Program-made: the position numbers and the translations under genes
DNA from: a virus
Virus record (IMG/VR): IMGVR_UViG_3300049844_000277
Span: 100,520 to 164,519 of that record
DNA length: 64,000 bases
Direction: 5' to 3' (one strand)
The notes under the pieces: generated by a model
What the model saw: the letters and a program-made list of their open reading frames with translations, nothing else
Told to the model about the DNA's origin: nothing
The model's database searches: none
Part shown: piece after piece, positions 19,997-22,900 of the stretch
Position numbering within the stretch: position 1 is the stretch's first letter
Layout: each line of letters opens with the position of its first letter

Positions 19997-22900
19997 ATGC
20001 GATGTTCTGGTTGCGGTTTCAACGTAGCAGTGGATGACGCTCCTTCCGGTAGAAGGTGTAACGCCTGTGGGTCTCACCTTATTTTTGAGTCAGATGATTT
20101 TCTTTTACGTCAGCATGGCGCTCCGGGGCGGGATGTTCGCGTTGGACAAGTGCAGATGGGCCGTATGGTTGAGCAGGTTATTCGTGAGCACGGTATCGCG
20201 TTAATTGAAGCACCCGTTGGATGTCATGGCGCCGGTACCAAGATTTTGATGTACGACGGTACCTTTAAGCGCGTTGAGAAGATTGCCGTAGGTGACCGCC
20301 TGTGCGGAGATGACGGTCAGCCACGCGAAGTTTTGAAGTTGATTCGAGGCGAGGCTGGGGACCTTGTTACGATTACGCCAAGTAAGGGGATTCCTTGGAC
20401 CGCAACACTGGACCATGTCTTAACTGTGGTTGATGGTTTTTCCGGACAAGTACGAGATGTCGTGTTACGGGATTGGTTGTCTGAGCCACCCGTTAATCGC
20501 ATGCGTTGTAGGTTGTTACGCTGTCCCGCTAATTTTGTCGAGCGAGATGACGTAATTCCTTTGGAGCCATACTTTCTTGGCAATCTTTTGAGTGATACGA
20601 CCGAGACGTATTCCATCATACGAAGGCGTCAGAAATTAGGTTCGTGGAGAAATAGTTGTCTTAGGGCAGTGCTTGATATGCTCCGTCTAGCAGATTGTCA
20701 TGCCTGGGAGCGACGAGTACCGCAACACTATAAAACAGGTTCACGTGAAACGCGGCTAAAGTTTCTCGCGGGACTTTTGGACTCAGGCGGGTTTTTACGT
20801 GAAGGCAGTTACGTGTATAGCTGTAGGTCTAAGCATTTAGCGCGTGACCTCGTGTTTATGGCGCGTAGCGTCGGTTTGGTAGCGGATTGTACTGTTAGTG
20901 AACAGACGTTTTTCGTAGATATCTCTGGCGATATTTCCGTGCTTCCCTCTCACGTTTCTCGAGGGAATAAGGCGCGTAGGGGTCCACGTAAGCGTTGGCT
21001 CCATGTTGAGTTTTCAGTCAGCGGGACTTCGGTAATTAAGCCTTTCTATGGATTTACACTAACAGGCAATGGGCGTTATCTTCTCGAGGATTTTACCGTA
21101 ACCCACAATTCAGGTAAGTCTGATGCGTATGGCGTACCGGCAGTAATTACCGCCTCACCAGATTCGGGATATACCTTGAAAGGATATCAAGGTTCTCTTC
21201 CTCTACGTGTAGCGGAGCAGAAGAAGCTGAGACCTCGAATTGTTATTTCTACAGCTAAAAAGAATTTGCAGCATCAGATAGCGGAGAAGGATCTTCCTTT
21301 TATCCGGAAAAGGCACGGTGAGGATTACGGTCCAATCGATATAGCGCTATTGAAGGGCAAGAGTAATTACGCGTGTAGGCTCAAGGCGGAGATAACTCTT
21401 GAGGGCGCAGAGAGGGCAACGTTTTTGTCTTGGCTTTCGCGTACTCCGGGAGAAGACTTATCCGATTTTCCAGGAAAGCGCCCGCCGTATCTTTTCGATG
21501 TAACCGCGGAAGACTGTGTCGGTAAAAGTTGCAAGTACGCGAAGCAGGCTTCCTGCGGTTACTGGAACGCTAAGTTGAATGCCGCTAAGGCGAGCATTCT
21601 GGTCGCAAACCATAGTGTAGTTGCATTTGACCTTCGTTTCGGTCCTTGCGCGATTATTGGTCCATACACGACACTCATACTAGATGAAGCACATCAGGCC
21701 CCTGCTTCATTCAGGTCCGCCTTTTCAAGTTCGGTTGTACAGGGCGGTGTTATTCGCACTATCCGGCAGATGGATTCCGCGGGTATCTCTGGAGGATTTG
21801 ATTCCGCTTTACAGAAATCCTGGAAAGCTATGTTCGAGGTTCTCGCCAGCAGTGAAGGAGAAATTCCTCGGAATCCTTTTGGGGATTTGGGTGTTGAGAC
21901 GAATCATATTTTGACTGAGGTAGACAAGGCAGCGTACGATAACGCAGTATCTTTGGGATGGTCGTCTGATCCAGGATTCGATATTGACAGTATCGAGGAT
22001 GAGGACGACCGTAGCCAGTTGTTGGCTATCTACGCTTTGCGTAAAACAATCGAGCGAACAAATGAGACATTAGCTCGGTCTATTACGCCCGATGAGAATA
22101 CTGTCCTCTATGTCACAACAACGGAGCGTGGGTTTAAGAAGTTGACTCTCGCACCTATTTCTGTTGGCAAGTTGGTAGGTCCTAAGCTGCAAATGATTCC
22201 GTCGGTAGTGATAACAAGCGCTACCATGGCAGTTGGGGGTAAGTTCGAAGATATTAAGTATCAGCTTGGACTTACGCGGTCGTACTATCGGGATGACGCT
22301 GGTGCGGCGCACATACCTAAACAAATACACGAGTTGGTTTTATCTACACCATTTAATTACGACAAGCAGGCTTTGTTGTATACGCCCCGCCATATTCCTT
22401 TACCGGTTGGAGCATCTGACCCGCGTCGTTCCGCATATATCTCGGTCGTAGTTAACGAGTGTACGCGCCTTATTCGGGCATCTGATGGTAATGCTTTTAT
22501 CTTGTTTACGTCTAAGCAGGATTTGTTGGATGTTTACGCGGGGCTACAAGAGGAAGACTTACCTAACCCGCTTATCATTCAAGACGATGATGCGTCGAAT
22601 ACCTTGCGTACGTACATGATGACGCCGAAGAGTGTTTTACTTGGTGTTAAGTCTTTCTGGGAAGGGGTAGATGTACAGGGCAGTAAGTTACAGCTTGTAA
22701 TCATTACTAAGCTACCCTTTCCTCCGGTAACTGACCCCGTGTTACAGGCGAGGTCTCGTCAACTCATCGCTGAGCAGGTTGCCTGTGGAATTCCGGCGGA
22801 GACGGCGAAGAGTTCTGTTTTCAGTCGACTACAGATTCCGTATATGCTCACGGAACTTCGCCAGGGAGCTGGAAGACTGATTCGTGCGCGCACAGATAAG

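Follow-up and report, generated by a model that had tools for sequence, protein, structure and literature searches.

A P-loop intein with a degenerate LAGLIDADG endonuclease in the DinG-family helicase gene of a large phage-like genome

The 64,000-nucleotide stretch of viral DNA analysed here (IMG/VR record IMGVR_UViG_3300049844_000277, positions 100,520 to 164,519; hereafter the window, to which all coordinates refer) contains a helicase gene whose Walker A (P-loop) codons are interrupted by an in-frame insert of 296 codons at 20222-21109. The insert is a class-1-type intein with a nested LAGLIDADG domain, as evidenced by the clean junction left on its removal, Pfam scores above the cut-offs and a structural model matching the PI-SceI/VMA inteins. 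The most probable reading, to which we assign a probability of about 0.88, is that a canonical intein, lodged within the Walker A codons of the DinG-family helicase gene of a large phage or a phage-like element, is still spliced out, carries its homing endonuclease as a relic and is inherited vertically.

The precursor, comprising 1031 amino acids (aa) with a computed mass of 114 kDa, is encoded by one open reading frame (ORF) on the plus strand (19997-23092), as are all its parts. The N-extein (75 aa, 19997-20221), conserved in the homologues, carries a zinc-ribbon-like CxxC...CxxC motif (C3, C6, C21 and C24) and ends with the first half of Walker A, APVG (20210-20221). It is followed by 888 stop-free, in-frame nucleotides coding for a 33.4-kDa insert (precursor residues 76-371), which extends from Cys1 (TGT, 20222-20224) to His295-Asn296 and is succeeded by Ser+1 (codon 21110-21112), with the FTVTHN/S junction at 21104-21112 (here and below a slash marks a splice junction). 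The C-extein (660 aa plus stop, 21110-23092) begins with Ser+1 in the remainder of Walker A, SGKS (21110-21121), and contains the helicase motifs. Excision of the insert in silico produces a protein of 735 aa and 80.6 kDa reading IEAPVG/SGKSDAYG (with longer flanks, ALIEAPVG-SGKSDAYGVPAVITASPDSGYTLK), with the GSGKS loop of Walker A restored; the split falls between the second Gly and the Ser of GSGKS. The G+C contents of the insert (0.491) and the flanking gene (0.484) do not differ.

All residues required for class-1 splicing are present in the insert: Cys1, T62xxH65, H295-N296 and Ser+1. The N-terminal HINT (splicing) region (intein residues 1-112, 20222-20557), supported by Pfam Hom_end_hint, the PI-SceI alignment and the structural model, begins with block A, CHGAGTKILMYDG (20222-20260), and includes block B, TATLDHVLTV (20399-20428), whose T62-x-x-H65 motif lies in TATLDHV and whose His is conserved throughout the intein-family alignment. 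The degenerate LAGLIDADG homing-endonuclease domain (residues 113-240, 20558-20941), recognised by Pfam Hom_end, the alignments and the model, contains the helix 1 motif PYFLGNLLSDT (20567-20599) and the helix 2 motif FLAGLLDSGG (20762-20791). The linker and the C-terminal HINT region (residues 241-296, 20942-21109), supported by the family alignment and the model, end with blocks F/G, KPFYGFTLTGNGRYLLEDFTVTHN (21038-21109), terminating in FTVTHN. Residues D290, F291, T292 and T294 fall in nearly invariant columns of the family alignment (at least 90% of sequences), and the H295-N296 (FTVTHN) end is common to all members with an intact C-terminus, being absent only from free-standing or truncated rows.

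Profile searches assign the complete intein to Pfam families Hom_end_hint (E-value 1e-13, 52.2 bits, cut-off 32.1) and Hom_end (E-value 7e-6, 26.6 bits, cut-off 21.1), while LAGLIDADG_3 remains under its cut-off (18.1 bits, cut-off 22.5). Its best relatives of known structure by sequence are the PI-SceI chains (E-value 2.5e-13), aligned over block A and the second LAGLIDADG region and taking in intein residues 1-45 of the N-terminal HINT region. The AlphaFold2 model, built from a 17-sequence family alignment, has a mean predicted local distance difference test score (pLDDT) of 88.7 and a predicted template modelling score of 0.86. The N-terminal HINT beta-strands are predicted at pLDDT 92-98 and the C-terminal HINT strands (residues 264-295) at 86-96, with residues 1-100 and 264-295 above 90 overall. 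PI-SceI is also the top Foldseek match to this model (E-values 1e-19 to 1e-16, template modelling score 0.71-0.76), followed by the TliVMA, PhoVMA, Prp8 and PI-PfuI inteins, mini-inteins and Hedgehog Hint domains; RecA, DnaB, GyrA and DnaE inteins are matched as well. The profile, sequence and fold matches are all much stronger than chance would give. A search of all six frames of the window with a hidden Markov model (HMM) of the family, aimed at a second intein of the same family, found only the 20222-21109 copy.

Alleles free of the intein are abundant. A search with the spliced helicase retrieved upwards of 70 close homologues that lack the intein, are 705-776 aa long and reach 77% identity, and in which the junction reads IEAPVGSGKSDAYG; P0001-P0013 are among the proteins with this reading. 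Within the set of the 78 closest homologues (P0001-P0078), an intein at the site used in the window is confined to P0014 and P0052, and all 75 that remain when these two and the fragment P0024 are set aside are continuous across the junction. One of the intein-free helicases, P0001, is encoded on a 34-kb contig (L002) with the same gene order around the helicase as in the window: two small ORFs and a gene for a protein of approximately 1200 aa lie upstream, all on the opposite strand, and ORFs of 76, 160 and 79 aa lie downstream. The DNA flanks of the junction in the window and in the intein-free allele differ chiefly at synonymous positions. The helicase allele of L002, a related genome, is genuinely empty. 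The exteins of the window protein are 76% identical to the intein-free homologues. The idea that the 296 residues form a lineage-specific in-frame domain of the helicase draws on the continuous reading frame and on nothing else, and has next to no probability in view of the 75 out of 75 close homologues without the insert, the same module in the P-loops of unrelated ATPases and the HINT plus LAGLIDADG fold; the intein-free homologues and the fold match refute it, and it was discarded.

The +1 position (position 76 of the spliced protein) varies among these helicases: across 76 sequences, comprising the 75 homologues and the window, it is Ser in 36 (GSGKS) and Ile in 34 (GIGKS). Alleles with Ile lack the +1 nucleophile and, judging by the sequences, could acquire a spliceable intein at the G/SGK register only if homing co-converts the +1 codon. 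Because such alleles need this co-conversion, the Ser/Ile difference may be a resistance polymorphism.

The host protein is assigned by its sequence to the DinG family of superfamily 2 Fe-S helicases. Its C-terminal part contains the Pfam domain Helicase_C_2 (PF13307; 22466-22942, E-value 1.5e-32, 113 bits), and its sequence matches in the PDB are only DinG proteins (8zef and 6fwr, from S. aureus and E. coli; E-values 1e-14 to 1e-15). The DEAH box (21683-21694; spliced residues 267-270) is invariant in all 76 sequences. Four cysteines between motifs I and II (C164, C211, C216 and C224 in spliced numbering; 21374-21556) are likewise invariant, apart from one that is present in 75 of the 76, and constitute the predicted 4Fe-4S cluster signature of the DinG family. 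The N-terminal CxxC...CxxC motif is also conserved, with four cysteines wherever the N-terminus of the homologue is present. The matches to NCBIfam YoaA (306.6 bits, cut-off 680) and DinG models (199-223 bits, cut-offs 598-789) are partial, and since these scores are far under the equivalog cut-offs, the protein is classified as an orthologue of neither YoaA nor DinG. The helicase looks functional, because the DEAH box and the four cysteines are invariant and Helicase_C_2 scores 113 bits.

These results agree closely with a preliminary description of the locus made from the letters alone, which had read it as a DinG/XPD-family Fe-S helicase with its P-loop split by a LAGLIDADG-type intein. The APVG/SGKS loop, said there to be restored by removal of 888 nucleotides, is restored at exactly the coordinates found here; the initial Cys, the TATLDHV block B, the VTHN end, the +1 Ser and both LAGLIDADG-like motifs that it listed are all in the sequence; and its sizes of about 735 aa for the helicase and about 33 kDa for the intein match the computed ones. 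Of the checks proposed there, profile searches put the intein and homing-endonuclease families above the Pfam cut-offs, and an alignment of the exteins with intein-less homologues gave a clean APVGSGKS junction. The refutation envisaged there, a lack of any intein-free allele, is contradicted by these homologues. The intein is further confirmed by the fold match and by the intein-free alleles, of which 75 read through the junction, and the helicase assignment by Helicase_C_2, the DEAH box, the four cysteines and the DinG structures.

Splicing is expected to proceed by the class-1 route. The 114-kDa precursor would be made with its ATP loop divided into APVG and SGKS and, because the intein splits the ATP-binding loop, is expected to neither bind nor hydrolyse ATP. 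An N-to-S acyl shift at Cys1 would be followed by attack of the Ser+1 hydroxyl on the thioester, giving a branched ester; cyclisation of Asn296, assisted by His295, would then free the 33-kDa intein, and an O-to-N shift would leave an ordinary peptide bond in a 735-aa helicase with an intact GSGKS loop. The free intein would have no further role. The alternative that the insert no longer splices, so that the helicase allele is dead and open by chance or the precursor has a non-helicase function, gains some room from the indirect nature of the case for splicing and from the ability of endonuclease deletions to impair splicing in some inteins, the endonuclease being an aid to splicing in TliVMA (PMC8966425). 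It is nevertheless hardly probable: the frame of 1031 codons is intact and the catalytic splicing residues are complete, the HINT regions share 57-60% identity with their P0014 counterparts and are modelled at pLDDT above 90, and the exteins, at 76% identity to intein-free homologues, retain all helicase motifs. Shorter derivatives of the same family (137-295 aa) also persist in other intact genes. On the preferred reading, selection on the helicase would keep the intein open and splicing-competent.

The two full-size inteins at the same site provide the reference for the endonuclease. The P0014 intein (342 aa) is 53.7% identical to the window intein and has the same insertion point, APVG/C...THN/SGKS; the P0052 intein (338 aa) occupies the same site, and both have the canonical motifs PYFLG.LLGDG.. 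and LAGL(L/I)DTDG. In a neighbour-joining tree of the inteins (253 columns) the window intein groups with P0014 at 100% bootstrap and P0052 joins them at 61%, as would fit either inheritance or homing among helicases of this family.

Compared with these relatives, the endonuclease of the window intein has degenerated. Motif 1 reads LLSDTT, with the Asp retained and both Gly gone. Motif 2 reads LLDSGG in place of the family LLDTDG, and Gly189 aligns to D326 of PI-SceI, which together with D218 we take to be the catalytic pair of that enzyme; nearly all relatives of the window intein have Asp at this second catalytic position. Approximately 37 residues are missing just after the first LAGLIDADG helix of the full-size relatives and approximately 9 more in the second half of the endonuclease, all 46 gap positions relative to P0014 lying in the endonuclease region. 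Identity to P0014 is 46.9% in the endonuclease, as against 59.8% in the N-terminal and 57.1% in the other HINT region. In the model of the window intein the LAGLIDADG helices lie at 116-122 and 175-189, and residues 123-174 between them form short helices without a beta-strand, with pLDDT falling to 53, the lowest value of the model; the second half-domain retains an alpha-beta-beta-alpha-beta-beta arrangement at high pLDDT. A control model of P0014, computed with the same alignment members, has a canonical alpha-beta-beta-alpha-beta-beta-alpha first half, with strands at 134-137, 157-162 and 166-171 (pLDDT 92.4). The window intein therefore keeps the two LAGLIDADG helices at the domain core, while an acidic residue closes only the first of them, the second ending in Gly189, and the DNA-binding saddle contributed by both half-domains is absent from the predicted structure, the first half being strandless.

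With Gly as the D326 equivalent, a deletion of approximately 46 residues and no predicted beta-sheet in the first half-domain, the homing endonuclease is very probably inactive, with the splicing domain preserved. The nested endonuclease would formerly have driven homing into empty alleles and would now be a decaying relic. Since it has lost one of the two catalytic Asp residues and the first-half beta-sheet of the DNA-binding saddle, the intein is expected to be passed on only vertically, with the phage genome. The window intein would then stand at the post-fixation degeneration stage of the homing cycle. The preliminary description had suggested that the endonuclease may be active, a proposal that Gly189, the loss of about 46 residues and the missing first-half beta-sheet do not bear out. 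A fully active mobile element, cutting intein-less alleles and homing during co-infection, would fit the two recognisable LAGLIDADG-like helices, the Hom_end score above the Pfam cut-off, the Asp of the first motif (LLSDT), the well-predicted fold of the second half-domain and the empty target alleles in related genomes. This is very improbable given the Gly at a position where nearly all relatives have Asp, the deletion of about 37 residues of the first beta-sheet and about 9 others, and a first half without strands in the window model but not in the P0014 control; moreover, PhoVMA, with comparable lesions, is experimentally inactive (PMC8966425).

Another possibility is that the intein is kept as a conditional switch, responding for example to redox state or metals through its extra cysteines and delaying the helicase until a certain stage or condition of infection. 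The P-loop insertion would guarantee an inactive precursor, the element is retained despite the decaying nuclease, and the intein has eight Cys, with C28, C96 and C101 of the HINT region among them; conditional splicing of P-loop/ATPase inteins is documented for DnaB and RadA (PMC6195587, PMC7360933, PMC4513877). The extra cysteines, however, show no conservation in P0014 and P0052. Most close homologues manage without an intein, and the standard homing cycle predicts retention after endonuclease decay with no benefit to the host (PMC8966425). A switch is thus an unlikely explanation, and retention of a spliced, nuclease-dead intein by vertical descent is preferred.

Several points weigh against the preferred interpretation. 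Matches of the insert in NCBIfam are weak, partial and confined to models of intein-containing proteins. The full-length precursor is missing from the protein database, where only P0024, a 100%-identical C-terminal fragment, occurs. Comparison of the exteins, HINT and homing-endonuclease regions with the P0014 locus (L001) for the ratio of nonsynonymous to synonymous substitution rates met with saturated synonymous sites, and the NG86 method gave a value only for the N-terminal HINT region, approximately 0.27, which carries no weight as a sign of purifying selection. The Asp of the first motif leaves a formal chance of nicking or DNA-binding activity. Finally, we infer splicing from the sequence, and nuclease inactivity from the sequence and predicted structures.

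The window intein is real but unexceptional, and the P-loop intein family to which it belongs is large and widespread. When 1.84 billion cluster representatives were searched exhaustively by HMMER with the precursor as query, 17,921 matches were obtained, including intein-free helicases, and among the best 150, which were examined, Walker A houses an intein in at least 24 further DinG-family helicases of 939-1264 aa. Adding P0014, P0052 and P0110 brings the DinG-family clusters with a P-loop intein to at least 27, of which 18 have it at G/[ST]GK[ST], the register of the window, and 9 at GK/[ST], after the invariant Lys; P0161 and P0169 were placed in the latter by reading their sequences, as the script left both unclassified. 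The two registers are not separated in the neighbour-joining tree, the deep nodes of which are unsupported. Most inteins at the window's site in DinG helicases (including P0142-P0165) are 337-362 aa long and retain their GDG and D(T/S)DG motifs intact, and decay is seen also in P0142 (295 aa, DAAG), P0207 (274 aa), P0166 (266 aa) and P0194 (191 aa). Members of this intein family, with the DFTVTHN ending, are found in Walker A of ResIII/SNF2-type helicases, a RecD-like protein, DnaB and AAA+-like proteins, the AAA+-like, RecD-like and DnaB carriers being encoded on viral and bacterial contigs.

A word-indexed search with the intein only missed P0014 and many of the DinG-hosted relatives that were later found exhaustively, so its low count does not mean rarity. 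None of the 59 genome loci found with a family HMM from a 4-sequence alignment has a DinG-like extein, and a literature search turned up no account of an intein in helicases of the DinG, XPD or Rad3 type. The rarity of a DinG P-loop intein implied by the preliminary description was therefore overstated, at least 24 further clusters having been found, though no paper on a DinG intein was found.

P-loops are a preferred intein site in DnaB, MCM, RFC and TerL (PMC4760082, PMC5050341), with GK/T as the 'classic' position (PMC5050341), and intein transfer between the P-loops of non-homologous proteins has been reported in Anaeramoeba (PMC10710043). A broader hypothesis, which we offer tentatively and consider rather unlikely as a whole, is that the DFTVTHN lineage is a P-loop specialist that has moved repeatedly among DinG-like, SNF2/ResIII, RecD-like, DnaB and AAA+ proteins, using two registers three codons apart (G/[STC]GK[ST] and GK/[ST]), and that its major reservoir, as yet undescribed, is the DinG helicases, in at least 27 clusters, from uncultured phages and bacteria. 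If this were true, the window copy would be a snapshot in a decay series from approximately 360 aa to 296, 266, 191 and 137 aa; in the boldest form of the hypothesis, a nuclease-dead intein would be retained as a conditional switch on a phage helicase.

Other unusual members were noticed among the relatives. P0166 (residues ~499-870) and P0194 (~435-607) contain a second intein in the DEAH box, ILDE/CFVAGT...VVHN/CHEAAD, and both ATP-site motifs of one helicase are thereby interrupted. In P0161, P0169 and P0207, close DinG-like homologues sharing the same N-terminal zinc ribbon, the insert after the invariant Lys starts with Ala instead of Cys (GVGK/AQTLE...FIVTHN/T), and its block F region contains a Cys (TQCIAV); by sequence these inserts resemble class-3-type inteins. 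P0125, P0127 and P0131 are full-length intein relatives that start with M..LGEGTP, lack Cys1 and extein context, end in DFTVTS or DFTVTHS and have intact LAGLIDADG motifs. They appear to be free-standing, HO-like endonuclease genes that arose from this intein family.

The neighbourhood of the helicase gene is phage-like, as the window encodes a baseplate-wedge homologue, tail-fibre/Ig-like proteins, an ATP-dependent ligase, an SNF2-type helicase and a VanY/endolysin-like protein. A sigma-factor-like ORF (10323-11021) and six tRNA genes (Ser-TGA, Gln-TTG, Ile-TAT, Lys-TTT, Val-TAC and Glu-TTC; 28669-28835, 36474-36547, 51633-51780 and 52306-52377) are consistent with a large phage genome, and contigs bearing related helicases reach 138-196 kb. 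The genome has no close cultured relative, since megablast of the helicase gene gave no match among 50,697 phage records.

Some other genes of the window deserve mention. The ORF adjoining the helicase on the opposite strand (15228-18872, minus strand) codes for a 1214-aa protein with an N-terminal region of approximately 250 residues rich in Gly, Met and Pro; it has no match in Pfam or PHROG, has a 1207-aa counterpart in the syntenic contig L002 and could represent a tape-measure-like protein or an internal virion protein. On the downstream side of the helicase, the gap at 23093-23725 contains only a doubtful TTG-started ORF of 177 aa (23167-23700); in L002 a small HTH_3 gene directly follows the helicase, and then a gap. 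An 886-aa ORF (30731-33391, plus strand) matches Pfam MVP_shoulder (E-value 3.8e-21), Vault_3 and the Vault repeat, all over the cut-offs, as well as solved major vault proteins (E-value 2e-18 over approximately 280 residues), suggesting an unexpected phage-encoded homologue of the eukaryotic Major Vault Protein. Two adjoining 409-aa ORFs on the minus strand (54759-55988 and 56003-57232) are tandem paralogues with 65% identity, neither of which is matched in Pfam or PHROG.

As a single locus the window intein is of little importance. Its recognition gives the correct annotation, which is one intein-containing DinG-family helicase gene, not a 1031-aa 'hypothetical' protein and not two genes. 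DinG-family Fe-S helicases can be added to the catalogue of intein hosts, with many examples in public metagenomes and no describing paper found, and the G/SGK register is recorded beside the 'classic' GK/T for one intein family. Intact in P0014 and decayed in the window, the inteins at this one site are a clean natural pair for the study of endonuclease decay with splicing preserved. Small inteins with a reduced endonuclease and Cys1/Ser+1 junctions in a GxGKS context could have practical use as splicing tools.

Among described phage proteins, the 'putative intein-containing helicase' of Salmonella phage St162, Klebsiella phages KpTDp1, JD001 and MEW1 and the Jersey-like phage FSL SP-031 carry members of the same intein family, with approximately 30% identity over the whole intein, the DFTVTHN end and a location in Walker A of a phage superfamily 2 helicase. 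Their register is GSGK/C...HN/T, three codons downstream of the window site, and their hosts are of the SNF2/ResIII type, not DinG. The family HMM also finds the DnaB-b P-loop inteins, AARPSMGK/CLG...TVTHN/TAF, in Rhodothermales, Salinibacter, Trueperaceae and Campylobacterales; these differ from the window intein in their GK/T register and unrelated host proteins.

The closest solved structure by both sequence and fold is PI-SceI, the VMA1 intein of S. cerevisiae (PDB 1dfa, 1vde and 1lws), which shares with the window intein the HINT domain and the nested endonuclease with two LAGLIDADG motifs. The two are alike in block A (CFAKGTNVLMADG in PI-SceI, CHGAGTKILMYDG in the window) and in the context of block E (FLAGLIDSDG and FLAGLLDSGG, respectively). 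PI-SceI, however, has 454 aa, both catalytic Asp residues and an active nuclease, whereas the window intein has 296 aa, Gly at D326 and a partly lost first half-domain; the +1 residue is Cys in the former and Ser in the latter. The yeast VMA-a site lies approximately 20 residues upstream of the V-ATPase P-loop (PMC8966425) and the window site inside the P-loop. A placement of the yeast VMA1 intein at the equivalent Walker A position (GAFG/CGKT) was considered and dropped, as only the archaeal VMA-b intein is located in the P-loop (PMC8966425).

The PhoVMA intein of the Pyrococcus horikoshii V-ATPase subunit A (VMA-b; PDB 7qst) shares with the window intein the P-loop site, a degenerated LAGLIDADG domain and an intact HINT domain. 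It is a structural match to the window model with a sequence identity of only approximately 14%, and differs in its archaeal V-ATPase host, its length of 376 aa, the loss of both Asp residues and a truncation in block E; in the window intein, by contrast, the Asp of block C remains and the strands that follow helix 1 are gone. PhoVMA, having lost its active-site Asp residues and undergone truncation, is nuclease-dead in vitro and was rescued by grafting (PMC8966425).

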